This document shows, in pieces, positions 6,719 through 64,000 of a stretch of DNA of 64,000 bases. Under the pieces are notes generated by a model. That model ran no database searches, was not told the DNA's origin, and saw nothing but the letters and a program-made list of their open reading frames with translations. Source of the stretch: a bacterium (lineage in GTDB: Bacteria > Babelota > Babeliae > Babelales > Vermiphilaceae); contig JAKBEL010000021.1 in NCBI GenBank assembly GCA_021833825.1, forward strand, positions 525 through 64,524, read 5' to 3'. The stretch's first letter is position 1. Every line of letters begins with the position of its first letter. Made by a program: the position numbers and the translations under genes.

Positions 6719-8632
6719 ATGTTAATAAGTAGAGTTTTGATTAAAGATGTTCTGTGTTCACTTTTTATTATGTTGGTATTCTGTATAGCGCTATGCTGTG
6801 GCGCAATCAGCTATATTGCACATAATAAATGCATAGATTTTTCACATCTTGAACAGTATAATCCAGGCAGGGCAACGATCTTGCTTGACCATGAGGGCAG
6901 AGAGTGGGCCCGTTTTGCCCTTGATAGGCGCAAGTGGATATCACTTGAACAGATGCCAAAGCATCTCATTCAGGCCTTTCTGGCTGCAGAAGATTGGGAT
7001 TTTTACAATCATTGTGGGCTTTCGTTTCGTGGCATAGTTCGTTCTCTGTTTGTTAATATATCTCATGGGCGTGTCATGCAGGGTGCAAGCACCATTACTC
7101 AGCAATTAGTTCGCCTTCTCTTTTTTGATCAAAAAAGAACATTCAGGCGTAAGATTAAAGAGCAGTTGATGTCACTTCTTGTTGAGATGCAGTTCAGTAA
7201 AGATCAGATACTTGAGACTTATTTAAATCATGTCTATTTTGGATGTGGCATTTATGGTGTTGAGGCTGCTGCGCAACGCTTTTGGAATAAATCTGTTTGT
7301 GATGTAACGGTTGATGAGGCTGCAGTATTGGCATCAATTATGCGATCTCCAGGTAGTTACACACCATTATTGCATCCACTTGCAACACAGCGGCAACGCA
7401 ATCTAGTATTGTTTAAAATGAGAAAGTTGGGATTTATTTCGCAAGAACAATTTCATGATGCCACATATAAGCCATTAGAGATCGTCAGCTATCATCAGGA
7501 TATCTTTGGTCAACATGCACGAGAATCGATCAGGCAGTTTCTTGAAGAGCTGTTTGGAGATGCTTTATATACTGGGGGATATATTGTCAAAACAACTATT
7601 GATGTCGCATTGCAAAAAAGAGCAGAGTCAAGTTTTTCGCAGCATATACAGACCATGCGCAAAACAATTAATAGCGGTATTGATGGTGCATTATTAACAA
7701 TGGCGGTAAATACAGGAGAGATTCGTGCTCTCATTGGCGGGTATGATTATAAAACATCCAAATTTAATAGAGCGTTACAGGCTTATAGGCAATTGGGCTC
7801 AGTCTTTAAAACGATTATATTTGCATCAGCATTACAACATGGTTTTAGTTTTGCAGATGTTGAGTGTGATGAGCCAATAACGATTGTTGATGCATATGGC
7901 AAAGAGTGGCAACCGAAGAATTATAATAGAATGTTTAATGGTCCGATCACTTTGGCCTATGCACTTTCACATTCAAATAATATTGTGGTTATTAAAACAT
8001 TCTTAAAGCTGGGAGCCGATCCAATTGTAGAGCTTGCAAAAAAATGTGGTCTGCCCGATCCAAAGCATCGTTACCCTTCATTGGCACTCGGCTGTGTTGA
8101 TGTAACATTAGATCAAGCCGTTGGTATGATGAATGTTTTTGCTAATAACGGTGTTTATGTGAAGCCCCATATGATCAGTTGGATTAAAGATCGGTGGGGC
8201 AGTAGAGTCTATAAGCATGTGGTAGTTCAAGAGCAGGTTATTGAGCCACATATCAGTGGGCAGGTTTTGAAGGTGCTTGGCATTGGCCTTGAGCGAGTCC
8301 GTGCAGTGATTGCTCCAAAGAAATGGATCGATAGTGAAGCTGCAAGTAAAACGGGAACAACCAATGATTATCGCACCTGTTGGTTTGTTGGATCAACACC
8401 GGAGTTGACAACGGGAGTCTGTATTGGATGTGATGACAATCGTTCAATGGGTGATGACGTCTATCCATTACATACAGCATTTCCAATATGGATTGGCCTG
8501 CACCGTGAAGTGAAGACTAAAAAAAAGAGATTCAGTTATGATCCATCATTAAAAGAGGTGGTTATTGATGAAAAGAGTGGCAAAAGGGTGAATGATAGAA
8601 ATGGCAAACATGTCATTTCAATATATGTTTAA
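6719..8632 (+). CDS. mrcA: Class A penicillin-binding protein (transglycosylase plus transpeptidase), PBP1A
   Basis: GT51 motifs EDWDFYNHCG and GASTITQQLVR. Transpeptidase motifs SVFK (SxxK), SHSN (SxN) and KTGTT. Confidence 0.9.
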   Translation: MLISRVLIKDVLCSLFIMLVFCIALCCGAISYIAHNKCIDFSHLEQYNPGRATILLDHEGREWARFALDRRKWISLEQMPKHLIQAFLAAEDWDFYNHCGLSFRGIVRSLFVNISHGRVMQGASTITQQLVRLLFFDQKRTFRRKIKEQLMSLLVEMQFSKDQILETYLNHVYFGCGIYGVEAAAQRFWNKSVCDVTVDEAAVLASIMRSPGSYTPLLHPLATQRQRNLVLFKMRKLGFISQEQFHDATYKPLEIVSYHQDIFGQHARESIRQFLEELFGDALYTGGYIVKTTIDVALQKRAESSFSQHIQTMRKTINSGIDGALLTMAVNTGEIRALIGGYDYKTSKFNRALQAYRQLGSVFKTIIFASALQHGFSFADVECDEPITIVDAYGKEWQPKNYNRMFNGPITLAYALSHSNNIVVIKTFLKLGADPIVELAKKCGLPDPKHRYPSLALGCVDVTLDQAVGMMNVFANNGVYVKPHMISWIKDRWGSRVYKHVVVQEQVIEPHISGQVLKVLGIGLERVRAVIAPKKWIDSEAASKTGTTNDYRTCWFVGSTPELTTGVCIGCDDNRSMGDDVYPLHTAFPIWIGLHREVKTKKKRFSYDPSLKEVVIDEKSGKRVNDRNGKHVISIYV

Positions 8633-12532: not shown

Positions 12533-13702
12533 ATGTTCATAAAAAGAGCGATTGCACAGGATATTCTTGAAGCGGCAAAGCATTTTTCAGCTTTAGCTGT
12601 TCTGGGGCCACGCCAATCGGGTAAAACAACGTTAGTACGTAATGTTTTTACAAACCATGCATATGTCAATTTAGAGCATCCCAAGACCAGAGATTTTGCG
12701 GTTGCAGATCCGGAAGGGTTTTTTGAACAGTATCAGAATGAATATGGGCTTATTATAGATGAGTTTCAGCATGTGCCTGAACTACTATCCTATATTCAGA
12801 TCTTTATTGATGAACGCAAAAGGCCCGGTTATTTCATTTTAACCGGTTCGCAAAACTTTTTAATGAATGAAAAGATCTCGCAAACATTAGCAGGTCGGAT
12901 CTCTATTCATACCTTATTGCCACTCTCTATTGGCGAGTTAAAAGAGGCAGCATTATTGCCACAATCACCAGAAGAACTTATCTGGAAGGGTTGTTATCCA
13001 TCGGTCTATATCGATAAAGAGCTCTCTCCAGAACGTTGGTATCAGAACTATATTCAAACCTATCTTGAGCGTGATGTTCGGCAATTAAAACAGGTTGAGG
13101 ATTTGCAACTGTTCAGAACTTTCGTGCAACTGTGTGCAGGGCGCGTTGGGCAGCTGTTAAATTTATCTTCACTTGGTAATGATTGTGGTGTTAGTGACAC
13201 CACTGCACGGCGTTGGATAGCGTTATTAGAGGCAAGTTATATTATTGTTCTATTGCAGCCATATCATAAGAATTTTAATAAACGGATCACAAAAAGCCCA
13301 AAGCTCTATTTTGTTGATACCGGTCTTGCATGTTCATTGCTTAATATTCAAGAGAATAGCGTTACTGATCATTATCTACGCGGTGGGCTGTTTGAGAATA
13401 TGATGATTGTTGATTTCTATAAACGAGCCTATAATCAAGGTGGTGTGCCACATTTCTATTTCTGGCGTGATCAAACTCATGAGATCGATCTTATTATTGA
13501 TCGTGGGACCAGTATCTATCCGGCAGAGATTAAATCGAGCAGGACCATCTCACAATCATTTTTCAGTAATGTTCAATATTTGGCGCAACTGGCTGCACTG
13601 AATCCAAAAGATAATGTTATTATTTACACAGGAGATGAGCATCAGAAGCGCACCATGGGGCAAGTGATTGGCTGGCGTGATGTCGATTCGATCGTTATAT
13701 GA
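12533..13702 (+). CDS. AAA+ ATPase with DUF4143-type C-terminal region (paralogue of 1785-2948)
   Basis: Walker A GPRQSGKTT and IIDEFQ. A strong SD precedes the start. Confidence 0.85.
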   Translation: MFIKRAIAQDILEAAKHFSALAVLGPRQSGKTTLVRNVFTNHAYVNLEHPKTRDFAVADPEGFFEQYQNEYGLIIDEFQHVPELLSYIQIFIDERKRPGYFILTGSQNFLMNEKISQTLAGRISIHTLLPLSIGELKEAALLPQSPEELIWKGCYPSVYIDKELSPERWYQNYIQTYLERDVRQLKQVEDLQLFRTFVQLCAGRVGQLLNLSSLGNDCGVSDTTARRWIALLEASYIIVLLQPYHKNFNKRITKSPKLYFVDTGLACSLLNIQENSVTDHYLRGGLFENMMIVDFYKRAYNQGGVPHFYFWRDQTHEIDLIIDRGTSIYPAEIKSSRTISQSFFSNVQYLAQLAALNPKDNVIIYTGDEHQKRTMGQVIGWRDVDSIVI

Positions 13703-42554: not shown

Positions 42555-43940
42555 TTAATAGAATACGTTCAGAGAGAACATAATCGTTGTGCTTCTGAAG
42601 GCAAATTCTACCATCATTGGGGTCTGCCACAAAAATCCAATAGAAAGATGTGAAGAGATATCATAGTCGAGCCCGACATTACCCATTTGGGCTCTAAAGC
42701 TCGATATTTTCTCTAAAGCTTGAGGTTGGAATGCTGGATCGCAGACCTTTAGGTGTATCGAGTCTTTTTGGTGTTGAACAATTACATATTGGAAATAGAA
42801 GGAGAGATGCTCTAGAAAATGATATGCTCCAAGCTTAGCGGCAAAGTGCCAGTTCCAGCCTGGCGAGCGCCTTATATCTGTTACAAATGGAAATAGGGTC
42901 TGTTGGCAAATATGATTAGGAACTCTAAAGCAGTTGAAATCTCGAGGAAAGAAGTAGGTTCCACCAATTTCGCAACCTATATCTATTGTCTCCACAAAGT
43001 CAAGATTGACTCCGGCAGATGCTCCTATTGAATGATGATCATTATTGCCATGCGAGAGCCCAAATATTTGACTTGGATTTGGCTCTTTGCCTATGGCAAC
43101 AGTTCCGCTGAGCATTAAGAATGGCATAACATAAAGATTTGGCCAGTCATTGCGAATCATGTTTCCTTCATAGGCGTGTCGCCAGAAGAGGTTAAATCGC
43201 AAGTCTTCCATTGTTGTTGAATGATAGTTGTTAAGGTTTATGCATGTCTGGTCACCAATGATTTTTAGTTTATCCATTAAATATTTATCGACATTATCTG
43301 GTGTTAATGCTGGATCGCATGGGTTAATTAAATTTTCAGCCGAATATCCAGAAAAACCGGTCAAGTTGGTGATGCATGATGGTGTATTGGTGATATCAGA
43401 GACCCCGCCCTGAATTTCAAGCCCAACGTTGCTTAAGATGTGAAGATTGATGTCCCAGCGAAAACCTCTTTTGCGATATTTTGAGTCGACTGAAAAAAAA
43501 CCGAATCGTTGGCATGGATCTGTTGGTTGATCGCAAATTGGTGGTGTAATTGTTGGAAATAGAGCCTGCTGAGCTTCTAAAAGGACTGGCGGTAACATGT
43601 TGCATGCTGGTGTCTGTCCGTAAAGAAGTGCAATCATATTCCAGCGGCCATTAATATCTCCAAGGGGAATAAGCTCTTTGAAGTTGTCTCGTGAGCTGTC
43701 AGAATTTTGTCCAAATGGAGAGAATGATATATAGAATTTCTGTGGAACATATCGTTGGCGCTCGATGCCATCTTTATCTATAAATCGTTCTCTTTTGTAT
43801 AAAAAGGTATAAGGATCGAGTGTTGTAAAGACGGGAAATGGATCATTCCTTGAATAAGAAGTAGGTACAGCAAATAAATCTATACTTAATATACTCATTA
43901 AAAAGCCTAACAATGAGAGGCTGAATCTTTGTGCTAACAT
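42555..43940 (-). CDS. Cys-rich putative outer-membrane beta-barrel protein (porin/MOMP-like candidate)
   Basis: Signal-type leader. Alternating hydrophobic pattern with a terminal aromatic residue (...FSLNVFY). Many Cys. Local motif similarity to 60705-62642 (GNNDHHSIGASAG versus GDNGHFATKLGAEG). Confidence 0.55.
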   Translation of the reverse strand: MLAQRFSLSLLGFLMSILSIDLFAVPTSYSRNDPFPVFTTLDPYTFLYKRERFIDKDGIERQRYVPQKFYISFSPFGQNSDSSRDNFKELIPLGDINGRWNMIALLYGQTPACNMLPPVLLEAQQALFPTITPPICDQPTDPCQRFGFFSVDSKYRKRGFRWDINLHILSNVGLEIQGGVSDITNTPSCITNLTGFSGYSAENLINPCDPALTPDNVDKYLMDKLKIIGDQTCINLNNYHSTTMEDLRFNLFWRHAYEGNMIRNDWPNLYVMPFLMLSGTVAIGKEPNPSQIFGLSHGNNDHHSIGASAGVNLDFVETIDIGCEIGGTYFFPRDFNCFRVPNHICQQTLFPFVTDIRRSPGWNWHFAAKLGAYHFLEHLSFYFQYVIVQHQKDSIHLKVCDPAFQPQALEKISSFRAQMGNVGLDYDISSHLSIGFLWQTPMMVEFAFRSTTIMFSLNVFY

Positions 43941-48562: not shown

Positions 48563-51541
48563 TTGATGTGTCATAGTTTGCCGAATATATTCAAGAGTCA
48601 TAAGGCTTTCAGTGTGCTTATAACGTTAGTGAATCGCTGTTACCCCATTTTATCTATTTTTTTCTTTTTTTATATAGGCGCATCGCAACATCATGAATCT
48701 ATTGTTATAACAATAACTGCAGATCAAGATGATCGAGAGCTGTATGGGGCAAAGTTAAAAAAACTTTTGCCAGAGAGCTTTATGATTAAAGAGATTGGAT
48801 TTGATGCTGATGTCTATCTGCAGCGGGATGAATTTGATTATCTGGTTGGTATGAGAGAGCGCGATACAGTGACCAGTCAGACATTGACTCAGTCTGTCTA
48901 TTATTTAATGAAAAAGCAGAAGTTCGATGCCATAACGATTACTGTTGATTGTTATGCAGATGGTGCAAGGATTCATTTTCAATTAAGTTCTTTCTGGACG
49001 TTTAAAAAAGTAAAATTTAAGGGTATTTTTGTCGGCAAGGAGTATTATCGGCAATATTATATTATGGAATGTGGAGATCGATTTGATCTTCAGAAGCATG
49101 AGGATTCCATTAAAAAGATAACAGAATCATTTAAGCAGGATGGTTATTTTGCCGCTCATGTTAAAGCTGATCTTATATATGATAATAAGACAAAATCTGT
49201 AACTGTATGTTTGTATATTTCAAAGGGGCCTCGATTTGCTATAGGTTCTGTTCAGATGGCAATTGAATCAGATTTATTGTGTGATGGAGAGAGGGATGCT
49301 CTGTATGAATCTATTCAGGTAGTCTTTATTCAACCGTTCTTGCGCAATTGGTATAATCGAGATCTTATCAATAACCAGACAATTTTATTAAGAGATTTTT
49401 TGGCCAAGAGGTCCTATTTGCATGTTGATGTTGATTTGCAAGAGCATGTTCATTATATGTCAAAGCGAATAGATCTCGATTTTATTATTCATCTTTCTTA
49501 TAAAAAGGGATTTGAATTTGTTGGTAATCATTTTTATTCTAATTCTGAGTTACTCGATTTTATGCTAGCATTTGGACGTTCGACATCTCTTTTGCCGGCA
49601 TCGATATTATCTGAAGAGATTATAAAAAAATATCATGATAAGGGCTTTTGGGCAGTTTCCGTTGATGCCCAAGAATGTGAGGATGGATGTCGCTTTATTA
49701 TTAATGAGGGCGCTCGTTCTCGTATTGTAGATATTGAGTTGCGGAATCTTTTTTATTTTAATAAGCAACAGTTGATTAAAAAGTTTTTTATGCCCATTTT
49801 GCGCAAAAAGTATTATGATGCTCATCTTATTGATAAAGCAATAGATAAAGCCTTGGCCTATTTTTTAACATTTGGTTTTTGGCAATGTGCTCTACTTCAT
49901 AAAAAGATAGAATTAATTGATAAGACAGATAATGCTTACACATTAATTATAACTTTTGAAGAGGGAATTCAGAGCTTTTTAAATAGCGTAAATATTGAAG
50001 GGTTTAATGATCTTCTTTCTCAGGGACCATTTAGAGAGTTTCATGAGCAACAGAAAAAGATTCCCTTTGATGTTGCTTTTATTGAAGAGCAGCGCCAGTG
50101 GTTACAGCAATATTTTCAAAAGGAGGGCTACTACCAGCCGCAGGTGCGCCCTCTCTTTGATAAGCATGAGGGTGATATTGATGTGACTTGGCAGGTCGAT
50201 GTGAATGGCCCTCAGGTGCAGTTTGGCAAAACAGTTCTGCTTGGAGCAACCAAGTTTCCATTTAAATCTATTCAAAGAGAGCTTGACTATAAAATAGGTG
50301 ATCCATGGCATAATAATGCGTTGCGCCATTCTATAAGTCGTCTTCAAAAGCTTGAAATATTCGAGTCGGTTCATCTTTTTCCTGATAAAAAAATCGATTC
50401 GGGCCATGAACATGTTATGTTGCTCAAGCTTCAAGAGGATGATCCATTTGAGTTGAAAATGAGAATTGGTGCTGGCCTACAGCATGTAACAAAAAGTTTA
50501 ACAACAGGTGGTCCAACTTATCGATTAGGTGGAAGTTTTATTTGGAAGAATCCAGCAAATTGTGGGGATCAGTTTCGTTTTGATGCTGATTTCACCAGAG
50601 CAATTAGGCTTGTTAATGCGCAATATCGCCTTCCATGGATTTTTAATGTGCCTGTTAATGCAATGTTGCAGGGATATACGAATAGATTTGAGTATCCTGG
50701 ATTTATAGGTAGTCAAAAGAATCTATATACGGTCATTCAACAGGGTTTTTTAGTAAATTTAACAGGTGTTTATAATGTTATTGATGCTGCATTGAGTACT
50801 GGGGTTGAAGTTGTTGATACCTATATAGATGAATCAAAAGAGGATGGTTGCTTTGCAAAAGAGGTCGCTCGTGCGATCAATTTCAGGCCTGAATTGCTTG
50901 ATAAAAATATTCCCTTTTTTCTTATTCAACCTACATGCATTCTCTTCTATTTAGATAACACGGTCAATCCAACTAGAGGATCATTCTCTGTGCTCTCTAT
51001 TAAAGGAATGTTTCCTATGGCCAAGTTAGCTCCAAGTAATTTTTTTATTCGTATATTGGCTGAGCAATCATTTTTTATTCCATGTTTACCTCTGGTATTT
51101 GCATTGAGAATTCGATTTGGTCATATTTTCCATCCCAAATTTAGTACCATTATTCCTATAGAGCGTTTTTATTTGGGTGGAGCAAACTCTATTCGTAGCT
51201 ATGAGACTGATCAGTGTCCGCCCTTGGGGACTGTTTGTGATAATGGAAAAGAGTTGTTTGTTCCTCAGGGTGGCAGATCACTTGCCAACCTCAATCTTGA
51301 GATGAGGTTTCCTCTGTATAATCAATTTGGTGGAGTTGTGTTTACAGATGTGGGTGTGCTGAGCAACAATCGGTTGGCAGAAATTCGCGCACAAGATTGT
51401 CTTTCAGGTATAGGATTTGGGTTGCGCTATAATACTGCTATTGGACCTTTAAGGTTTGATGTTGCATGGAGAGGTCGTAAGCATGATGGAGTTGGCAGAC
51501 CTTATGCATGGTTCTTATCTTTTGGTAATGCATTCATATAG
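48563..51541 (+). CDS. bamA: Omp85-family outer-membrane assembly factor (BamA/TamA-like) with POTRA repeats
   Basis: 992 aa. Repeated POTRA-like modules and the C-terminal barrel motif ERFYLGGANSIRSY. The start is uncertain (TTG 48563 or ATG 48566). Confidence 0.8.
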   Translation: MMCHSLPNIFKSHKAFSVLITLVNRCYPILSIFFFFYIGASQHHESIVITITADQDDRELYGAKLKKLLPESFMIKEIGFDADVYLQRDEFDYLVGMRERDTVTSQTLTQSVYYLMKKQKFDAITITVDCYADGARIHFQLSSFWTFKKVKFKGIFVGKEYYRQYYIMECGDRFDLQKHEDSIKKITESFKQDGYFAAHVKADLIYDNKTKSVTVCLYISKGPRFAIGSVQMAIESDLLCDGERDALYESIQVVFIQPFLRNWYNRDLINNQTILLRDFLAKRSYLHVDVDLQEHVHYMSKRIDLDFIIHLSYKKGFEFVGNHFYSNSELLDFMLAFGRSTSLLPASILSEEIIKKYHDKGFWAVSVDAQECEDGCRFIINEGARSRIVDIELRNLFYFNKQQLIKKFFMPILRKKYYDAHLIDKAIDKALAYFLTFGFWQCALLHKKIELIDKTDNAYTLIITFEEGIQSFLNSVNIEGFNDLLSQGPFREFHEQQKKIPFDVAFIEEQRQWLQQYFQKEGYYQPQVRPLFDKHEGDIDVTWQVDVNGPQVQFGKTVLLGATKFPFKSIQRELDYKIGDPWHNNALRHSISRLQKLEIFESVHLFPDKKIDSGHEHVMLLKLQEDDPFELKMRIGAGLQHVTKSLTTGGPTYRLGGSFIWKNPANCGDQFRFDADFTRAIRLVNAQYRLPWIFNVPVNAMLQGYTNRFEYPGFIGSQKNLYTVIQQGFLVNLTGVYNVIDAALSTGVEVVDTYIDESKEDGCFAKEVARAINFRPELLDKNIPFFLIQPTCILFYLDNTVNPTRGSFSVLSIKGMFPMAKLAPSNFFIRILAEQSFFIPCLPLVFALRIRFGHIFHPKFSTIIPIERFYLGGANSIRSYETDQCPPLGTVCDNGKELFVPQGGRSLANLNLEMRFPLYNQFGGVVFTDVGVLSNNRLAEIRAQDCLSGIGFGLRYNTAIGPLRFDVAWRGRKHDGVGRPYAWFLSFGNAFI

Positions 51542-51651: not shown

Positions 51652-52329
51652 ATGGCTCATCACAACAATAACCATGCGCATGAACATACTCATGAGCATA
51701 GCCTTACACAAGAGTTAATCTGCCATTTTCCTTACGCAGTATTTTCTGTTGCGTTTGCTCTTATTTTGGTCAGTTTTATAACCAAGCCTGGTCTTGAATC
51801 GGTTGGGCTTCTTCAGATGCAGTCACATATTCTGTTTCATAGTTTCCATTTTATGCATATAGTCTTTGCATCAGCGGGATCTATGATAACCTTTTTGCGT
51901 TATTCAAAAAATCTATTCATGGGTGTTCTTATTAGTATTTTATCTCCGGCTGTATTTTGTATTCTTTCTGACGTTATTTTGCCCTATATTGGTGGGCGGA
52001 TGTTAGGTGTTGATATGCATTGGCATATCTGTTTTATTACTGAACTTCACAATGTATTGCCATTTCTATTTACAGGAATTTTAACTGGTATAGCATTGAG
52101 TTATCATGGTTCAGAACAACAGGGTTTTTACAGTGTTTTTTCCCATTTTTTTCATATCTTTGTAAGTTCTATTGCGTCAACACTCTATCTTGTTTCACAC
52201 GGATTTACTACATGGTATGATTCAATAGGGTATGTTTTTGTATTTTTAATTATTGCTGTTGTTATTCCATGTACCTGTTCAGATGTGCTTGTTCCTGCAT
52301 TGATAGCAAAAGCACATGCCAAACAATGA
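51652..52329 (+). CDS. Polytopic membrane protein with His-rich N-terminus (possible metal transporter)
   Basis: MAHHNNNHAHEHTHEHS followed by about 6 TM segments containing conserved-looking His and Cys. Confidence 0.5.
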   Translation: MAHHNNNHAHEHTHEHSLTQELICHFPYAVFSVAFALILVSFITKPGLESVGLLQMQSHILFHSFHFMHIVFASAGSMITFLRYSKNLFMGVLISILSPAVFCILSDVILPYIGGRMLGVDMHWHICFITELHNVLPFLFTGILTGIALSYHGSEQQGFYSVFSHFFHIFVSSIASTLYLVSHGFTTWYDSIGYVFVFLIIAVVIPCTCSDVLVPALIAKAHAKQ

Positions 52330-56292: not shown

Positions 56293-59200
56293 ATGAGCGA
56301 TAGATTTTTTATACATAAATGGAAATTTACCATCTGGTTTTTGTTATGTGCGGTACCTTCTTTAGTGAACGCCATACCGACTATAACATGGACTAATTTA
56401 AATACACCATCAAATATTTCTGGTGGATTTGTAGCGAGCGTGCTTCTTGATGCAACCGGAAGTGGGGGCGTTATTGAGCTTCAACCAAACTCACCTACTG
56501 TCTTTCCTGGCACAGTTGGAACCAATGTCATCTCTAGTTATAATGTAGGGCCTGCTATGATAGGCGTCAGTTTAGCCGGTGATACCATTATTAGAGGTAA
56601 TGCTGCAGGTAATTCTAGACTCTATGTTTATGCACAGCTTGGAGCAGAAGTTGTTTTTGATTTAAGCACATATAGTTTGACCTTTGAAGGTTCTGCAAAT
56701 GGGGATGATCTTCTTATTGCAATACAGGGTCAAGGAAAGGTTGTATTTGTCTTAGGGGACGGGAAAAAACTTATATTGACTAATAATAGTGTAGCGGGCG
56801 GTGGTCGTGTACAGATGTATAGACAGTTAGATGATAATATGACTGCAAGACCAGGAGCTCAACTCATATTTGTAGGCAATACAGGTTCAGTGAATCCAGA
56901 AGTTGTTATTGAAGAAGGCTCGATTGTAAGTTATTTAGGTTATACTGCTCAACCAAATGCACCGACCTCTGAAAATGGTATTATTCTTTTTGATACAACA
57001 AACAATAGTGGTTCCAATGAGATGATTTTGACTATAGGGCAATTGGGTGCTGTTATTGTCAGAGGGCGTCTTGTAAGTAATGTTACACCTCCTGAAGATT
57101 ATAATTATACGCTTGCCGATATTGATCCTAGTATGCCAGCTGGATTTAATGCAATTTTTAATGTTATAAATATGAATGGGTCATCTGCTAGTGGCGGCTT
57201 GTTAGTGCAGAACTATAATAATACATTAGGAGAGCTCATTTGGGATCCATGGTGCAATTTAGATGTTCGTAGCAATCCTCCATTTGGTAATTTCAATGGA
57301 GTTCAATGGGGCTTTGTATTAGGTTCTTATGCAACTTTAAATGTTAATGGTTATGCGTACCTTGATTATGTCTCATTGACCGGTACACAGTGCCCAGTTG
57401 TATCCTCTCTTGTAAATGCTTCATCGCTCATTAAGTCACGTAATCCATCAGCACTCTTTACCGATGGTCAACCAGATCCATTATTTATACCGCCCCAGAT
57501 TACTATTGGCCAAGTTGGTCAACCTGCAGGAATCTTCTTCCGTTCAGGAGTTGATAATAATGGAACCATTCGTTCTTTATCTGATCCAAATCCATTTACT
57601 ATTGATCCTGCAAATCGTACGCCGGGTGAAGGATTTGTTGTTTTTGATATAGAAGGTCCGCTGAATATAACCGGTTTTAATACGGCTTTACAAGAGTTTT
57701 CGGGCATAGAGTTACTCTCTCTTGAAGTTGATCCGACAGGAGGATCACTATTTGTTGGAGATGGACAGACTATATTTCCATTAAGAACTTTTGCAACTCA
57801 ATCAGTAACAGATCAATGCACAGGGCAAGTTACAGAGACCTATTTATCATATAATAATGCATGCTTCTTGAATAATGGTCGTGTCAATTTGCAATCAGTT
57901 TCAATTATTCATACAGATCAGAATCATCATGTTTTTGAAGATAATGATGTTGCCTCAGAGCCAGCATATATTGGTGGCGAGACGTGGCTCTTCAAATCTT
58001 GTGTAGGATGCATCGCAAAACCAAAATGGGCTTTTTATAATTCACGTTTTGATGTGCAGACGAGCGTTGCATTAACAGGAGTTGATCTCTTGGTGCCTAA
58101 TGGATCTGATTATGCAACACCATGTGGTGCAAATCTCTCACAGTTTGCATTCTATCAAAATGGTAAAGCGATTGATCATGGCAATGGTCGTAATATGATT
58201 TTAGGTACCTATATTGGTTCAACGGCATGTGATGGTTGTACAGTGCTCGATAAAGATGCTCAATTAGATGTTATGCAGGATCAAGATTGTGACAGTCCTA
58301 GCCCTCAAGAGCTTCAATTGGTTAATGGGGTCAATGATAATACTATTGTTCAAGGCATAACGGGTGATATTAGTAATCAGTATTCGATACAGACGATTTA
58401 TTTAGGTAACAATAGTAACATTTCAGTTGGAACACAGGGCAGTCTTGGCACCACTATGAGTGTTACAGTGCCAGTTCAATCGACCTTCCCATTGACTACG
58501 TTGCCAATATTAACCATTGATGGAAATTTCTTCTCATTTGAAACGCGCGGTGGAGAAAACGGTCTACCAGATACAAGCAATGTGACAGGTCAAGGTGGTA
58601 TCTTTGTTGATACAAATGGTACATTCCAAATAGGGAGTCAAGTTTGTGGCTATCGTACTAATATTGGTGCCATGGTAACAAAGAGTAGTAATGGTGTAAT
58701 TAATCTACCTTCAAATCGTGTGTTTTTTGATCCTACTATCGGTATTGCAACTTGGAACTTAGATTTAAGTGATTCAAATCAGTGGGTTATTGTGCCAAAT
58801 GGTGTTGAATATGAAGAGTATAATCTCAATTGGATGTTTACCATTAAGGATTATAATCAGTTCATGCCATATTATTTAACAGATTGTTACAATCCATGTG
58901 TATGTCCACCTGTTATAGATATGAACGTAACAGCGATTCCAGAAGTTCAAGGGACTGTGCAACAGTTTAATATTCAAGGTTCACGCATTGGTGATCCAGC
59001 TCATCTAAAAGTGAACGGTGGAACAATAGAAGAGCTTGTGATGCTTGTTGGTTTTAATTCAGCAGAGGCTCCAGTTGCGGTATTAGTACTTGAGAATAAT
59101 GCTGAAGTTGGACTTGGTTCAACACATCGTAATGTTGATTCATTGCATGCATCAGTGCAGCTGGGTGTGAATGGTATCAATCTTATTATGGATGGTGGAG

Positions 59201-60612
59201 ATGCAACAGTAGTTCTTAATGAAGATGTTATTATTAATAATATCTGTTCAATTTTACCTGGTCCAAATATCTCTTCAACATCAAAACTAAAATTCACCTC
59301 CGATTGTTGTAAAACATTGCGTGTTACTAAAGATGGTATACTTGACTTGAGTGGTTTTGATGAAGGTCAAGTTATCGAATTTGCAGGTAATGTGCACGTG
59401 GTTTTTGAGCCGGGATCAACAGTAATCTATAATCCTATCTCTCAAGGAACGGGGCCAACATTACGTTTTGCAGATCAGGCTACATGTCTATTTGAACCAG
59501 TACATAATCTTGATGGTATTTTTGGAACCGATTTGACAGGAACAGATACTGTTCGCGTTGTATTTACTGGAGTAGGAGTATTAGAGTTTGCAGATTGTGC
59601 TCGAGCAGATCTGCCGCGCGATGCATTTGTTGGTATTGAGTCTTTAGCATCTTGTGATATAAGCGGTGCAGTTGTGCGACTTCATATAACTGATAGCGCA
59701 GAATTCTATATTGGTGATACTGATTGTAGAACGCCCGGTGGTGTGTTACAAGTTGGCAATACTATTCCGTTCACTATGAATGTTGATCCAGTAATTACTT
59801 TTAGTCTTATCTTAGATGGTCCTCAAGCTAAATTTGAAATTGGGCCACAAGGGTTCTTAGGTCTTGGTATGGGGATTGTCAATAAGCCTGCACTGGGGCA
59901 TGACAATTGGCTTGTAACTCAAGCATATAATTTAAATACAGTCAGTTTAGATTTGCCTAATGGCATTTTCCGTCATGCTCAACTCTATGCTGGAAATGAT
60001 GATCGCTCAGCATTGATAGCATTAGGTGATTCTATTTTGGGTGGAACAAATCCATTTGAATTCTATAGTGACCCACTGCCAGGTACAGCGCCTGATAAAT
60101 ATTCAGCATCATTGCTTTCAAATACTAATCTGTTGGGTGGTGGTAACATAATTGCAGCAGCGCCATCAACAACAGAGGTGTTCGCTCCAGTTGTTGATGA
60201 TGTGAATGGTGCTATAAATTCAGGTCAATATTTTGCAGGGATTTTGGCATCAACACCGATATTACAAGAGCCACAATTTTCAGGCAATGCAGCAGTGAGC
60301 GCTCAAGAGGCTCAATTGTTATTAAGGGCACAAGATATATTATTATTAGCTCCAACAACTAATCGTGCGGTTGCAGCACCAAGTGACCTGCTCAATCAAG
60401 TGCGTGTTGGTTATATTGATTCTGCTAATATTCCTGGATCTGAAGGTTTAATTGGAAGAATAGAAGTTATTAATATTCTTGGAAAGACTCCGCAGACTGT
60501 TGTTCAGCAACATACATTGCAGATTGGCGTTGCACAAGTAACCCCAACTCCATTGAGTGCTGGAAATAATCCTCCACGTCCAATTTTATCAGTAAATGAA
60601 TTAGGTAATTAA
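56293..60612 (+). CDS. Giant (1439 aa) secreted G/N/T/V-rich, Cys-containing protein, beta-helix/adhesin-like
   Basis: Leader ...LCAVPSLVNA. Recurrent short strand-turn patterns (GAEVVFDLSTYSLTFEG, GKVVFVLGDGKKLILTN, GAQLIFVGNTG). Close Cys pairs SCVGC, ACDGC, DCYNPCVCPP and SDCC. No C-terminal barrel signature. Confidence 0.7.
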   Translation: MSDRFFIHKWKFTIWFLLCAVPSLVNAIPTITWTNLNTPSNISGGFVASVLLDATGSGGVIELQPNSPTVFPGTVGTNVISSYNVGPAMIGVSLAGDTIIRGNAAGNSRLYVYAQLGAEVVFDLSTYSLTFEGSANGDDLLIAIQGQGKVVFVLGDGKKLILTNNSVAGGGRVQMYRQLDDNMTARPGAQLIFVGNTGSVNPEVVIEEGSIVSYLGYTAQPNAPTSENGIILFDTTNNSGSNEMILTIGQLGAVIVRGRLVSNVTPPEDYNYTLADIDPSMPAGFNAIFNVINMNGSSASGGLLVQNYNNTLGELIWDPWCNLDVRSNPPFGNFNGVQWGFVLGSYATLNVNGYAYLDYVSLTGTQCPVVSSLVNASSLIKSRNPSALFTDGQPDPLFIPPQITIGQVGQPAGIFFRSGVDNNGTIRSLSDPNPFTIDPANRTPGEGFVVFDIEGPLNITGFNTALQEFSGIELLSLEVDPTGGSLFVGDGQTIFPLRTFATQSVTDQCTGQVTETYLSYNNACFLNNGRVNLQSVSIIHTDQNHHVFEDNDVASEPAYIGGETWLFKSCVGCIAKPKWAFYNSRFDVQTSVALTGVDLLVPNGSDYATPCGANLSQFAFYQNGKAIDHGNGRNMILGTYIGSTACDGCTVLDKDAQLDVMQDQDCDSPSPQELQLVNGVNDNTIVQGITGDISNQYSIQTIYLGNNSNISVGTQGSLGTTMSVTVPVQSTFPLTTLPILTIDGNFFSFETRGGENGLPDTSNVTGQGGIFVDTNGTFQIGSQVCGYRTNIGAMVTKSSNGVINLPSNRVFFDPTIGIATWNLDLSDSNQWVIVPNGVEYEEYNLNWMFTIKDYNQFMPYYLTDCYNPCVCPPVIDMNVTAIPEVQGTVQQFNIQGSRIGDPAHLKVNGGTIEELVMLVGFNSAEAPVAVLVLENNAEVGLGSTHRNVDSLHASVQLGVNGINLIMDGGDATVVLNEDVIINNICSILPGPNISSTSKLKFTSDCCKTLRVTKDGILDLSGFDEGQVIEFAGNVHVVFEPGSTVIYNPISQGTGPTLRFADQATCLFEPVHNLDGIFGTDLTGTDTVRVVFTGVGVLEFADCARADLPRDAFVGIESLASCDISGAVVRLHITDSAEFYIGDTDCRTPGGVLQVGNTIPFTMNVDPVITFSLILDGPQAKFEIGPQGFLGLGMGIVNKPALGHDNWLVTQAYNLNTVSLDLPNGIFRHAQLYAGNDDRSALIALGDSILGGTNPFEFYSDPLPGTAPDKYSASLLSNTNLLGGGNIIAAAPSTTEVFAPVVDDVNGAINSGQYFAGILASTPILQEPQFSGNAAVSAQEAQLLLRAQDILLLAPTTNRAVAAPSDLLNQVRVGYIDSANIPGSEGLIGRIEVINILGKTPQTVVQQHTLQIGVAQVTPTPLSAGNNPPRPILSVNELGN

Positions 60613-60626
60613 CGATAAAGAGTATG

Positions 60627-60660
60627 CGAGTAAGAGTCTTAGAAAATAGATTCTTACTCG
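60627..60660 (+). terminator. Strong hairpin between the giant gene and the barrel gene (attenuator/terminator candidate, no U-tract)
   Basis: A 13-bp stem (one G-T pair): cgagtaagagtct / agattcttactcg, with an 8-nt loop. Confidence 0.4.
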
Positions 60661-60704
60661 TAAATGTATAGAAGCATATGAAGATATAATCAAAAAGGAG
60701 AGCA

Positions 60705-62642
60705 ATGAAAAAAGAACTCTTAATGGCAGTTGGCCTGCTGAGTTTGTCGGGGATTTCCCTTTATGCAACAACAAGTTATTTCAGAACACCGCTAAGTTTT
60801 ATTGAGAGTCGTTGGGGATATGTGCATTATCCATTTCCATGGCTTGATGATTGTGCAGATTGGGAAATTGATGCAATGGGCGTTGCGTATGAACGCACAG
60901 CGTGTAAAGCTTATGGCAAAAATCCAGCATGTATTACTAATGATGATGAGTGTAATAATTCATGTGATAGTAACAATAAGGTAACAAGAAATACTGTTCC
61001 GCTTTCACAATTGTGGTTTGGTAAAGAATCATTCTTAGCTTCAGAAATTTTTGCAGGGGGGGCAGTTGCAGGTCCATCGGCAAATCCATTTCTTAATTTT
61101 GTGAGAATTACTCCTAATTTTGACTATAATGAGAGCGGTGCAGCACTTGCATTTAATGCAGTACGTAAAAATTTAGGATGTGATAAATCATGGTTTGTTG
61201 GTGGTCGTGTTGCAATGCCAATTGCTACGGTTGATGTAAGGCAGCGCCATTCAGGGCCAATTGCTGTTGCAACTGAAGAGCTTGCTAGCGTTATTTTGAC
61301 CATTGGCCAACAATATAATGCAAATGGGCCAACAGTTCCCGGTTCGACCGATTCGCGCCAGGTCAAAGCGTATCGTCTAGATTTTTTAACTGGCCTTCAG
61401 ATGCCTGATGGGACACCGATGGTCAAATATGGTACCGTGGGATTAGATGCAACATCAGATACTTTTATTGCTGGTCAGGATATTACAACTAATAATGATC
61501 AACATACTTCTGGTGCAAGTCCGAAGCGTGCACCAATATATGTCTATAAGCAGAGTGATGGAGTTTTTCCGTTGGCAAAGCAAGGGCTTACAGAGAATGA
61601 TGCAAAATTTCCTTTGACTATTGGTGGGCAGCGCGCTTACCCTATGGTTGACTTGGAGGCAGATGCCATTTTAGATGCTGCAGGAGGGGCAGTATTAACA
61701 GATGGGCAAGTTGCCGCATTTGGAGGGTATAACAGTGCTCCATCATCAACAAATTTACAGGCAAATTATGCAGGTGGTCTTGGTGCTGATGTTAATGCTC
61801 AAAAGCAACTGTTTGTCTTTCCTGTAGCAGCATCATCTGGTGGTATGACATGGGAACCGATTGGTCTGTTGGTAGAAAATACCATAGAATATGTTTTAGA
61901 TGCTTTACAAAATGCGAATGCTTCTGAATCTGAGTCAGTTCTTACCTTCTTTGATATTCATGGTATCGATTTTGGCAATTCTGATTGTTCAACCGGTGCT
62001 GGTGATACATTGTTCGAATTTTATGGTGGCAAAATGCATGATTGTTGGTTTGTTGATGGTCTTGTGGGATTACGTTTGCCAACAGGTTCTGATGCGGATA
62101 ATCCAAGGCGCATTTATCAGCAGACAACTGGTGATAATGGCCATTTTGCAACTAAACTTGGAGCAGAAGGTGGTTATGTGCCATGCCATTGGTTTGGTAT
62201 GAAATTTGATTTCTTTTGGTCACATTACTTCTCTCATACTGAAAAACGTGCAGTACCATTTAAAGGGTCAACGATTCGCAACATTGGTCCATGTATTGAT
62301 GCTAAAGTGCATTGGGATGATTTCCAGGCGCATGCTGATTTTACATTCTTTAGTCCACGATGCCCCGATTTAGGTTGGGATTTTGGTTATGAATTTTTTG
62401 CAAAGACTGACGATAAAGTCTGTCTTTGTGCAACACAGGCAATTGATTTTAATGGCAATACGCAATTTGTAGATGCATCTATTTTGAGTGAAAACACCAA
62501 TACTCAATCACATAAGCTTCGTGCTGAAATTTTCAATAGATGGGGATGCTTCGAACTATTCTTTGGCGGATCATATATTATTGCTGGTCGTCAGGTTATG
62601 AAGGAGGCTGAGTGTCATTTGGGTATGAAGGCTTATTTTTAA
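60705..62642 (+). CDS. Cys-rich putative outer-membrane beta-barrel protein (larger relative of 42555-43940)
   Basis: AAGGAG SD and a leader. Cys-dense N-terminal region (DDCADW...ACKAYGKNPACITNDDECNNSCD). Terminal ...GMKAYF. Confidence 0.6.
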   Translation: MKKELLMAVGLLSLSGISLYATTSYFRTPLSFIESRWGYVHYPFPWLDDCADWEIDAMGVAYERTACKAYGKNPACITNDDECNNSCDSNNKVTRNTVPLSQLWFGKESFLASEIFAGGAVAGPSANPFLNFVRITPNFDYNESGAALAFNAVRKNLGCDKSWFVGGRVAMPIATVDVRQRHSGPIAVATEELASVILTIGQQYNANGPTVPGSTDSRQVKAYRLDFLTGLQMPDGTPMVKYGTVGLDATSDTFIAGQDITTNNDQHTSGASPKRAPIYVYKQSDGVFPLAKQGLTENDAKFPLTIGGQRAYPMVDLEADAILDAAGGAVLTDGQVAAFGGYNSAPSSTNLQANYAGGLGADVNAQKQLFVFPVAASSGGMTWEPIGLLVENTIEYVLDALQNANASESESVLTFFDIHGIDFGNSDCSTGAGDTLFEFYGGKMHDCWFVDGLVGLRLPTGSDADNPRRIYQQTTGDNGHFATKLGAEGGYVPCHWFGMKFDFFWSHYFSHTEKRAVPFKGSTIRNIGPCIDAKVHWDDFQAHADFTFFSPRCPDLGWDFGYEFFAKTDDKVCLCATQAIDFNGNTQFVDASILSENTNTQSHKLRAEIFNRWGCFELFFGGSYIIAGRQVMKEAECHLGMKAYF

Positions 62643-62661
62643 TTTATAAAGAAAGAAGAAC

Positions 62662-64000
62662 ATGAAAAAAAGGAATGAGTATCAAATTCTGCTTTACTCC
62701 AAGATGTTAAGTGTATTCTTGTTGGCATTAGCTCCATTGCCTTTAGATGCTTTTAGCCGTGCAAGTAGAGCTCCTATATCAAAGAGTATGTCTAGAATTG
62801 GTCGTGAAGCAGTAGGGGCAGATTTTAGCCGTATAGGGCTTGATAAAAATCGAGCGCCTAGACCAGATGCCTTATCATATCAAGGTTCAACTCCTCAAAT
62901 TGCATCGCCATTTAATGCGGCCTGTTGTGAAGAGCTGAAGTTGGCGATCTGTAATTTGAAGCAATTTATTATTGACAATGGCGGTTGCTCTTCTGCTTGT
63001 GAAAATCTTCAAAAAGATCTTCAGACACTGATAGATTTGGCAAATTCGAATTTGCTATGTTGTAATGTAAATACAGCTCAGGGTGCAGAAGCCAATAACA
63101 AACTGAATTATATCACCTCAGTTGTTGACCAAACAGAATCATTATTGATCGAAATAGATCAGACAGACCAGATGATATTATCAAAGGTCTGTAAAATTGA
63201 TACACAAGTTGATGTTATTATTGCAGCTTTGGGGTCTATAAGTAATTTAGATCTTTTTATTAGTGAATTGGACATTCTAGTAAGTACCATTGAAAAGCTT
63301 GATGTTGGTATAGTCTCATCGCTTATTGTTACGATACAGGGTCTTAATAGTGTAATAGATAATATATCATCAAAAATAGACGTAGATATTAATCTTGATG
63401 AAATGATATTATCAAAAGTCTGTAAAATCGATACGCAATTGGATACAGTAGAATCTCTTGTAGAGCTTGTGGTTGGTCAAGATTGCAGTAGTGCAACAGC
63501 TATTATTTTAAGTGGATTAGATAGTCTGGGTACTCATATAGAGCAGTTGACGAGTATTGTTGAAAGCATTGATGTGACATTGATCTCTGTTGAATCGACC
63601 GTTAATGTGATCGATACAAGAACAAGTAGTATCTACAACGTTGATCAGACCATTTTGTCATTGGTTGAGGATATTGACCCTAGAGTGATATCAATACAAT
63701 CATCAATTGACAACACAGTTAACTGTTGCAGCGCGGTCAATGTGATTGATACAAGAACAGCATCAATCTATAACGTTGATCAGACCATTTTGTCATTGGT
63801 TGAGGATATTGACCCACGAGTGATATCAATACAATCGTCGATTGATAATACAGTTAACTGCTGCAGCGCGGTCAACGTGATTGATACAAGAACAAGTAGT
63901 ATCTATAATGTAGATCAGACTATCTTGTCATTGGTTGAAGACATTGACCCTAGAGTAATATCGATTCAATCATCGATTGACAATTCAGTTAACTGCTGTA
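62662..64000 (+). CDS. Leader-bearing Cys-pair coiled-coil repeat protein (partial; continues past the window end)
   Basis: Not in the ORF track because it is open-ended. Hand translation from ATG 62662 is stop-free: MKKRNEYQILLYSKMLSVFLLALAPLPLDAFS... CC pairs occur at AACCEE, LLCCNV and VNCCSAV. It lies 19 nt after the barrel gene. Confidence 0.75.
   Translation, partial: MKKRNEYQILLYSKMLSVFLLALAPLPLDAFSRASRAPISKSMSRIGREAVGADFSRIGLDKNRAPRPDALSYQGSTPQIASPFNAACCEELKLAICNLKQFIIDNGGCSSACENLQKDLQTLIDLANSNLLCCNVNTAQGAEANNKLNYITSVVDQTESLLIEIDQTDQMILSKVCKIDTQVDVIIAALGSISNLDLFISELDILVSTIEKLDVGIVSSLIVTIQGLNSVIDNISSKIDVDINLDEMILSKVCKIDTQLDTVESLVELVVGQDCSSATAIILSGLDSLGTHIEQLTSIVESIDVTLISVESTVNVIDTRTSSIYNVDQTILSLVEDIDPRVISIQSSIDNTVNCCSAVNVIDTRTASIYNVDQTILSLVEDIDPRVISIQSSIDNTVNCCSAVNVIDTRTSSIYNVDQTILSLVEDIDPRVISIQSSIDNSVNCC
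63604..64000 (+). repeat. In-frame 135-bp (45-aa) tandem repeat, at least 2.9 copies, truncated by the window end
   Basis: Units start at 63604, 63739 and 63874 and encode NVIDTRT(S/A)SIYNVDQTILSLVEDIDPRVISIQSSIDN(T/S)VNCCSAV. Confidence 0.9.

Follow-up and report, generated by a model that had tools for sequence, protein, structure and literature searches.

Type Va autotransporters carry a passenger and a C-terminal β-domain (PF03797) in one polypeptide; the chlamydial Pmp proteins, which belong here, are recognized by repeated GGA[ILV] and FxxN tetrapeptides (PF02415). In type Vb secretion, the exoprotein TpsA, with an N-terminal two-partner secretion (TPS) domain (PF05860), is separate from TpsB, a 16-stranded Omp85 barrel with POTRA domains. 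FapF is a 12-stranded, plugged barrel through which unfolded polypeptide passes. The Dependentiae (TM6), a widespread phylum, live inside protists as obligate parasites. They are diderm, with a degenerate or absent synthesis of lipopolysaccharide (LPS) (PMC4776705, PMC6561590), the four known outer-membrane tethers Lpp, Pal, OmpA and OmpM have not been found in them (bioRxiv 10.1101/2021.05.31.446380), and the only recognizable secretion system of Babela is reported to be of type II (PMC4378268). We describe here three consecutive, co-directional open reading frames, g1, g2 and g3, at positions 56293–64000 of the plus strand of a 64,000-nt stretch of DNA from this phylum (contig JAKBEL010000021.1; "the window" always means this whole stretch). 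Our tentative reading, which we favor over the others weighed below, is that g1 and g2 are an outer-membrane pair peculiar to the Dependentiae, a type-V-like system split into two genes, to which one clade has added a disulfide-capable fiber.

The third gene runs off the end of the window, and its complete sequence was read from the matching source contig, DAHZAV010000005.1 of GCA_027404905.1 (L023). The features of the locus are:

56293–60612, plus strand: g1, a secreted protein of 1439 amino acids (aa), modeled as β-helix class, with a Sec leader (cleavage approximately after VNA and before IP) and without a barrel of its own
60625–60662, plus strand: stem-loop with a 15-bp stem and an 8-nt loop, ΔG −22.8 kcal/mol, z −5.2
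60705–62642, plus strand: g2, 645 aa, a modeled outer-membrane β-barrel of 12–14 strands, ending ...GMKAYF
62662–64000, plus strand, with its end at window-equivalent position 65742 (L023:16370-19450): g3, 1026 aa, a secreted protein with predicted helical repeats
62842–63048, plus strand: N-terminal module of g3, RAPRPDALSYxGSxPxIxSPF...CxCxLK, common to other secreted proteins of the lineage
63607–64000, plus strand, continuing to window-equivalent position 65423 (L023:19131): tandem array of g3, 135 nt or 45 aa per unit, 13.5 copies with 84 % matches (Tandem Repeats Finder)

The open reading frames lie where an initial annotation of the window, made from the sequence alone, had placed them, and each begins with the leader that had been noted, in which inspection shows a basic n-region followed by a hydrophobic core and by a cleavage site of the small-x-small (A-x-A) type. 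The spacer between g1 and g2 is 92 nt long (60613–60704), and the start of g3 at 62662, 19 nt past the stop of g2, was verified. Paralogues of the three genes were not found within the window.

The conserved core of the locus consists of g1 and g2, g3 being confined to one clade. A pattern scan for the g2 family in one genome per GTDB species yielded 22 loci (L001–L022), of which 17 are labeled Candidatus Dependentiae, Babeliales or TM6, four "uncultured Pseudomonadota" and one "bacterium"; most of the five with other labels agree with these in local gene order. The organism of the window is therefore a member of the Dependentiae and not a chlamydia. Twenty loci reach far enough upstream of g2 to be informative, and in all 20 the gene that directly precedes g2 is a g1 orthologue of 1362–2014 aa. 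These orthologues all have cleavable leaders, and all are without a barrel or an anchor. The identity of g2 decreases across the 20 loci from 54 % to about 25 %. Most loci have one copy of the pair, with potD upstream in about 11 and metG downstream in many. The synteny of all three genes in relatives, which the initial annotation had put up for examination, thus holds for g1 and g2 throughout and for g3 in about 11 loci of one clade. The g1 and g2 families are undescribed and, on present evidence, confined to the Dependentiae; sources that name g1, g2, g3 or their relatives call them "hypothetical protein", and a full-text search of the Dependentiae literature gave no description of any of the three proteins.

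Some loci show local duplications, namely two tandem g1 genes in L004 (1415-9886), two tandem g2 genes in L015 (10001-14016) and three consecutive g3-like genes in L012 (11883-17886). The four metagenome-assembled genomes with the Pseudomonadota label (L004, L011, L012, L018) carry a g1–g2 pair of the Dependentiae type, with potD upstream in L011 and L012 and metG downstream in L004 and L011; their labels are probably wrong.

As judged from its AlphaFold2 model, which was built on 28 homologues, g2 is an outer-membrane β-barrel. The model shows 12–14 long antiparallel strands, with a predicted local distance difference test score (pLDDT) of 82.5 and a predicted template modeling score (pTM) of 0.78. 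Foldseek found 105 matches to it in the PDB at E ≤ 1e-3, the best 50 of these 105 being almost all outer-membrane barrels. The closest folds are those of FapF (E 2.8e-9; template modeling score, TM, 0.64 relative to the target) and of the COG4313 channel 4rl8 (TM 0.73), and further matches include the barrel of the autotransporter EspP, FadL and OmpF; sequence identity to the best structural neighbors is 6–12 %. Moreover, g2 has what is expected of an outer-membrane barrel inserted by the BAM machinery, namely a leader, long strands, a C-terminal aromatic residue (...GMKAYF) and a BamA encoded in the same window. The initial annotation, which had called g2 a barrel candidate and asked for a barrel prediction, is borne out by this model and its matches to FapF, COG4313 and EspP. 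By sequence, the g2 profile had no match in the PDB and g2 had none in Pfam or NCBIfam at E ≤ 1, and a set of 43 diverse relatives contained no relevant Pfam family. The family itself is large: clustering at 50 % identity gives 436 clusters with E ≤ 1e-3, and 322 of them reach E ≤ 1e-30.

The g2 barrel carries two insertions, a Cys-rich one after strand 1 (about residues 67–135) and a conserved one of about 200–245 aa, which ends at residue 426 and starts at residue 225 if 14 strands are read and at residue 181 if 12 are read. The topology was read from the DSSP string of the model with the rule that the C-terminal strand ends in the periplasm; both insertions, together about 300 aa that are conserved, are then predicted to face outside. 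Conserved across the family are also the mature N-terminus, TSYFRTPLSF, and the long loops QxxGNNGH and FxGATVKNIGP. Such an N-terminus and such loops are not typical of a plain porin.

The AlphaFold2 model of g1 was built with 47 homologues and spans residues 240–1439. It consists nearly entirely of short β-strands (pLDDT 89.2, pTM 0.77), with the C-terminal 200 residues modeled as a small α/β region, and it contains no barrel, which agrees with the earlier description of g1 as a G/N/T/V-rich (G 10.6, V 8.8, N 8.1, T 7.6 %), β-helix-like protein without a C-terminal barrel. The Foldseek matches of the model are weak (best E 7e-3, TM 0.11–0.18). Top-ranked in the PDB are SepA, Hap, EspC, Ag43, Hbp, IgA1 protease and pertactin, all of them autotransporter passengers, together with Fap2 and phage tailspikes, and the second-best match is EtpA, a TPS adhesin. 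A viral fold library gave nothing significant, its top-ranked matches being mostly β-helices. Because parallel β-helices dominate the top-ranked matches in both collections, the model supports the assignment of g1 to the β-helix class, in which it is without a close structural relative. Compared with what defines a right-handed parallel β-helix, g1 offers a confident short-strand model, structural matches with E ≥ 7e-3 and TM 0.1–0.2, and no match to Pfam Beta_helix. Indeed, g1 had no match at E ≤ 1 in Pfam and NCBIfam and none by sequence in the PDB, and of its at least 62 homologues none has a Pfam domain. A peptidoglycan-binding domain was not detected in g1 by Pfam, and an AsmA/TamB-like fold is not among its structural matches. 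In the main clade g1 carries a conserved polar patch (KxRNPSA, RSG, HTDxNH..YIGGE), while conservation is even across 1400 residues with no focus on one site. An enzyme with a catalytic site was considered for g1 and not adopted, because deep lineages have not retained the HTDxNH patch.

The strong hairpin that had been noted between gene 1 and genes 2–3 (60627–60660) was found at 60625–60662, and none of 200 shuffled sequences folded as well. It is not followed by a U-tract, and a terminator pattern scan gives no call for it; in the whole g1–g2 spacer neither a canonical intrinsic terminator nor a sigma-70 promoter was called by scan. By eye there is a TATAAT in the spacer, which is too near the start of g2 and leaves no room for a ribosome-binding site. 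In 17 of the 20 loci the g1 stop is followed by a stem-loop of 10–15 bp, with z between −3 and −6.6; the sequences are unrelated from locus to locus, and in L001–L022 the U-tract is missing after most of them. Since the position is kept while the sequence is not, the stem-loop is likely functional. It likely acts as an intra-operon attenuator of read-through or as a 3′ stabilizer of the g1 message, and its occurrence suggests a phylum-wide uncoupling of g1 and g2 expression.

How does this pair compare with the type V systems? With type Va autotransporters, including the Pmps, it shares a Sec leader, a very large passenger of apparent β-helix class (g1) and a modeled barrel of about 12 strands with a terminal aromatic residue (g2). 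It may plausibly depend on BamA; the matches of g2 include the EspP barrel, and those of g1 include SepA, Hap, EspC, Ag43 and pertactin. It differs in that passenger and barrel are separate genes and in that the barrel has about 300 aa of conserved insertions predicted to lie outside; a type Va autotransporter was rejected, g1 having neither PF03797 nor any other Pfam match and the barrel being encoded by a gene of its own. A chlamydial Pmp is excluded for g1 because GGA[ILV] does not occur at all and FxxN occurs at chance frequency (7 times versus about 5.5 expected); there is also no Pfam match. With type Vb the locus has in common that adjacent genes encode a leader-bearing, apparently β-helical exoprotein (g1) and a dedicated outer-membrane barrel (g2). 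However, a TPS domain in g1 and POTRA or Omp85 domains in g2 were not detected, and g2 matches barrels of 12–14 strands. Two-partner secretion was rejected, neither TpsA nor TpsB domains being found in Pfam or NCBIfam. FapF and the COG4313 channel are the best structural neighbors of g2 (E 2.8e-9 and TM 0.64; TM 0.73), but g2 is about twice as long, has two large insertions and gives no sequence-family match, and fap-type amyloid genes are not nearby, the neighbors being g1, g3, potABCD and metG.

The complete g3 consists of a leader, the RAPRPDALSY...CxCxLK module, a non-repeat helical region, the 45-aa units and a tail that ends in amphipathic ...VIAWLKTLLADLHGL. It had been described as a coiled-coil-like protein with Cys-Cys pairs and a 45-aa tandem repeat running off the window; there are in fact 13 exact units rather than a few, each ending in NCC at an exact spacing of 45 aa, and altogether 15 regularly spaced CC pairs. 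The units differ from each other at 16.7 % of nucleotides and 6.1 % of residues, with 15.3 synonymous versus 2.7 nonsynonymous codon differences per pair. The array is therefore old and under strong purifying selection rather than the product of recent slippage. The constancy of the units suggests a strict structural register, as imposed by a periodic partner or by disulfide-locked packing of several chains.

In 11 of 15 members of the g3 family the Fourier spectrum of hydrophobicity peaks at 3.45–3.75 residues, commonly at 3.65, which is 11/3, and most members contain less than 5 % Pro and less than 6 % Gly. The spacing of the CC pairs is 11 residues in L006 and 45 residues (4 × 11 + 1) in the g3 of the window. 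A periodicity near 11/3 (3.67) and a low content of Pro and Gly are the marks of hendecad coiled coils, and g3 would thus fit a hendecad-type α-helical fiber, the helix being deduced from periodicity. Against Pfam and NCBIfam g3, and against Pfam its orthologues, gave only summed sub-threshold matches to coiled-coil families.

In about 11 loci, all of one large clade, the gene that follows g2 is an orthologue of g3; the deep lineages have none. The orthologues range from 188 to 1026 aa, and their repeats are unrelated between loci; shared are the leader, the richness in Cys, the RAPRP module and a ...WLKT[IL]xxELRGL tail. For example, the module was found by tblastn in the g3 orthologues of L001, L002, L006 and L013. 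It is not restricted to g3. A Pfam Beta_helix protein encoded two genes past metG in this genome has it at the N-terminus (L023:22881-23009, 53 % identity), and so have at least two of the four genes that form an array on another metagenome contig (L025:159-8018), the N-termini there being of the same stalk type; one protein of this array, P0246, appears by eye to have a β-helix as its C-terminal part, for which Pfam gives no match. The repeat of g3 (VNVIDTRTSSIYNVDQTIL...NCC), in turn, also forms the N-terminal stalk of proteins of about 770–930 aa (P0243-P0260), which continue into a β-rich C-terminal domain of about 400 aa ending in WEERF. This domain, which had no match in Pfam and the PDB, is possibly a receptor-binding head. 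Several of these proteins are paralogue pairs on single contigs.

The architecture common to these proteins, a leader, an N-terminal module, a helical stalk of variable length and a variable distal domain, is the pattern of surface fibers. The RAPRP module looks, by its distribution among the sequences, like an attachment or targeting module of an undescribed family of surface proteins and is likely the attachment end. Similar in the periodicity of 3.65 and in the variable stalk length are the hendecad and pentadecad stalks of tetrabrachion, YadA-type trimeric autotransporters and viral fibers, the more so as the g3 repeat precedes a β domain of about 400 aa, and the N-terminal module of g3 a β-helix domain, in other proteins. 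Different are the regular Cys-Cys pairs and the lack of a YadA-type anchor or a known head domain. A trimeric autotransporter adhesin (type Vc) was rejected for g3, which had no Pfam match above cut-off to the YadA-like anchor (PF03895). Because its lengths range so widely and module and repeat are reused in front of β domains, g3 fits a surface fiber better than a periplasmic analogue of OmcA or OmcB.

The initial annotation had taken the whole locus to be Cys-rich. This is true of g2 (2.33 % Cys) and g3 (3.80 %) but not of g1, whose 1.53 % is at the window background of 1.55 % and whose homologues have between 6 and 57 Cys. Fifteen Cys are unusual for a barrel protein. The dense N-terminus of g2 that had been pointed out contains Cys 50, 67, 76, 83 and 87 within the first 90 residues, and C159, C447, C494, C553 and C615 lie at short inter-strand turns of the model, which are predicted to be periplasmic. 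Conservation of the positions, for which a test had been suggested, is found within the clade of the window (≥ 46 % identity), where 13 of the 15 Cys positions of g2 are each conserved in 24 or more of 28 sequences. In a middle clade (30–37 % identity) g2 has 9–21 Cys at partly different positions, and in most deep lineages it has 0–2. Loci with g3 have 9–21 Cys in g2 and loci without g3 have 0–14 (Mann-Whitney U test, p = 0.004, not corrected for phylogeny). The richness in Cys is thus a clade-level overlay on an older, Cys-free g1–g2 pair. Since the deep lineages have 0–2 Cys in g2 and no g3, disulfide cross-linking is not the ancestral or defining function of the locus.

It was with the disulfide-cross-linked outer membrane complex of the Chlamydiae that the locus had originally been compared. 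In that complex, intermolecular disulfides between conserved Cys bring about insolubility in detergent. Alike are a Cys-bearing barrel (g2), a Cys-rich secreted partner (g3), a protein of probable β-helix class (g1) and an obligately intracellular organism. Different are the lack of any homologous component, the keeping of g2 Cys positions in the close clade and not in deep lineages, the background Cys content of g1 and the resemblance of g3 to an extended fiber of variable length. Neither g2 nor g3 matched MOMP (PF01308), OmcA or OmcB in Pfam or NCBIfam, and the 43 g2-family members had no relevant Pfam family either. The original proviso that the resemblance is one of logic only was well placed, no Pfam match at E ≤ 1 relating the proteins of the locus to MOMP, OmcA, OmcB or Pmp; the complex itself survives not as a conserved function but at most as a lineage-specific overlay. 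The locus thus fails the sequence or architecture tests that define the type Va, type Vb, Pmp, chlamydial outer membrane complex and type Vc families.

The locus is preceded by a BamA/Omp85 gene, a gene for a membrane protein rich in His, and potABCD; behind it comes metG, followed by genes for two Pfam Beta_helix proteins. The G+C content is about 37 %, and an ankyrin-repeat protein is encoded. The PBP1A and MurG to which the initial annotation had referred are both in the window. Other features are:

48563–51541, plus strand: BamA/Omp85 homologue with POTRA repeats, 992 aa and thus unusually long, with 16 Cys, 5 kb upstream of the locus
51652–52329, plus strand: multi-pass membrane protein of 225 aa between bamA and potA, with a His-rich N-terminus, MAHHNNNHAHEHTHEH, and no Pfam match
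6719–8632: PBP1A, 637 aa
15443–16546: MurG
L023:22809-24320, about 5 kb beyond the end of the window: Pfam Beta_helix protein with the RAPRP module

The His-rich protein may be a metal transporter. A leader-bearing protein of 461 aa encoded at 42555–43940 on the minus strand, with 10 Cys, the end ...FSLNVFY and no Pfam match, is a candidate for another Cys-bearing outer-membrane barrel. Directly upstream of PBP1A another leader-bearing protein without a Pfam match, likewise of 637 aa, is encoded at 4739–6652 (plus strand). The ATPase genes at 1785–2948 (minus strand) and 12533–13702 (plus strand), separated by about 10 kb, are AAA_14/DUF4143 paralogues, and AAA_14/DUF4143-like genes also adjoin the g1–g2 locus in L014, L018 and L019.

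In the reading that we favor, g1 and g2 would both be exported by Sec. BamA, encoded 5 kb upstream, would insert g2 into the outer membrane as a 12–14-stranded barrel with a large conserved outer domain, and g2 would pass the g1 protein of about 150 kDa across this membrane, hold it at the surface, or do both. Without an anchor of its own, g1 would be the principal structure at the surface, or for contact with the host, in these intracellular parasites poor in LPS, and the stem-loop would set a higher ratio of g1 to g2 message. The clade of the window would then have added g3, an 11-residue-periodic helical fiber with the RAPRP anchor module, a stalk and the WLKT..ELRGL tail, and would have accumulated conserved Cys in g2 and g3, including those at the predicted periplasmic turns of g2; disulfide bonds would probably lock the assembly in this clade. 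What the analysis shows are the reading frames with their leaders, the predicted folds of g2 and of residues 240–1439 of g1, the synteny, the conservation of the stem-loop, the patterns of Cys and the modular build of g3; from these we infer the physical coupling of g1 and g2, their location at the surface, the role of the stem-loop and the disulfide bonding. The structural matches, as far as the models go, are consistent with such a pair, the best ones of g2 being 12-stranded protein-conducting or channel barrels and the top-ranked ones of g1 being autotransporter or TPS passengers and tailspikes.

It should be noted, however, that a number of points weigh against this reading. The passage of g1 through the outer membrane and its contact with g2 are themselves steps that we infer. 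We know of no split system with a 12–14-stranded barrel, so that the mechanism would be without precedent. The structural matches of g1 are weak (best E 7e-3, TM ≤ 0.18, for a model of residues 240–1439), and the topology of the g2 barrel, including the predicted position of Cys at periplasmic turns, derives from the DSSP string of the model. The neighborhood with potABCD and metG is nearly as well conserved as that of g1 with g2, and synteny in small genomes therefore need not mean a common function. Finally, a mirror-tree comparison of the distance matrices of g1 and g2 gave r = 0.97 with a partial r of 0.51, versus 0.46 for the g1–potD control. The comparison does not separate the pair from the control and is uninformative as to which reading is right.

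Other explanations share parts of this evidence. One goes further than the reading just given and makes g1–g2 a core, phylum-defining surface machine with a new route of export or anchoring by a stand-alone barrel, g1 coating an outer membrane poor in LPS and devoid of tethers, and one clade locking this coat with a RAPRP-attached, disulfide-linked hendecad fiber; we consider it possible but rather unlikely. The Cys lead to another, in which the main job would be a rigid, disulfide-bonded shell like that of the Chlamydiae, g2, g3 and g1 being analogues of MOMP, OmcA/OmcB and Pmp, respectively, and the shell replacing or supplementing envelope stabilizers. The 15 Cys of g2, 13 of which recur in 24 or more of 28 close relatives, the five conserved ones at predicted periplasmic turns, the 15 regularly spaced CC pairs of g3, whose presence tracks the Cys content of g2, the Cys in BamA (16) and in the other putative outer-membrane protein (10), and the reported lack of known outer-membrane tethers in Dependentiae all point in this direction. 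But deep-branching Dependentiae keep g1–g2 with 0–2 Cys in g2 and with no g3, the Cys content of g1 is at background and varies from 6 to 57 among homologues, homology to any family of the chlamydial complex is lacking, and lengths of g3 between 188 and 1026 aa are hard to reconcile with a periplasm of fixed width, which makes such a shell unlikely as the main function.

The two genes could also be neighbors without a functional coupling. In this case g2 would be a channel of the FadL/COG4313/Tsx type importing hydrophobic or bulky nutrients from the host, g1 an independent β-helix enzyme or effector (a polysaccharide lyase or hydrolase, for instance) that leaves the cell through the type II system, and g3 one of many surface fibers. 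COG4313 (TM 0.73) and FadL are indeed among the best matches of g2, whose conserved mature N-terminus could serve as a hatch or plug; potABCD uptake genes adjoin the cluster in about 11 loci, the main-clade g1 has the polar patch described above (KxRNPSA, RSG, HTDxNH..YIGGE), and a type II system is reported to be the only one recognizable in Babela (PMC4378268). Yet HTDxNH is lost in deep lineages, the conservation of g1 is spread over 1400 residues, no enzyme family in Pfam or the PDB matches g1, and a strict adjacency throughout the phylum together with a conserved stem-loop exceeds what unrelated neighbors usually show; we rate this explanation as improbable to the same degree as the shell. 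Because no known outer-membrane tether has been found in the Dependentiae, it is attractive to think instead of g1 as a periplasmic rod of about 30 nm that links the inner membrane or the peptidoglycan to the periplasmic face of g2. Homologues of Lpp, Pal, OmpA or OmpM are reported to be lacking, the pair is mostly single-copy, phylum-wide and syntenic as a core envelope component should be, and the roughly 60 coils of the presumed β-helix would by our estimate correspond to the width of the periplasm. Against this stand the cleavable, non-anchoring leaders of all g1 orthologues, the Pfam search of g1 without a peptidoglycan-binding domain and its structural matches without an AsmA/TamB-like fold, and the large conserved domains of g2 on the predicted outer rather than periplasmic face, and we regard a tether as very unlikely.

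What the locus offers are the first concrete candidates for the surface architecture of the Dependentiae: a barrel and a giant protein of probable β-helix class, present together in every lineage of the phylum sampled, and a modular family of fibers with a shared N-terminal module. If g2 exports or anchors g1, type V-like secretion would extend to a split format that does not involve Omp85, and should the Cys cross-link, a chlamydia-like envelope would have arisen a second time, independently, in one clade. The three proteins are obvious targets for antibodies, surface proteomics and cryo-tomography in the small number of cultured strains.

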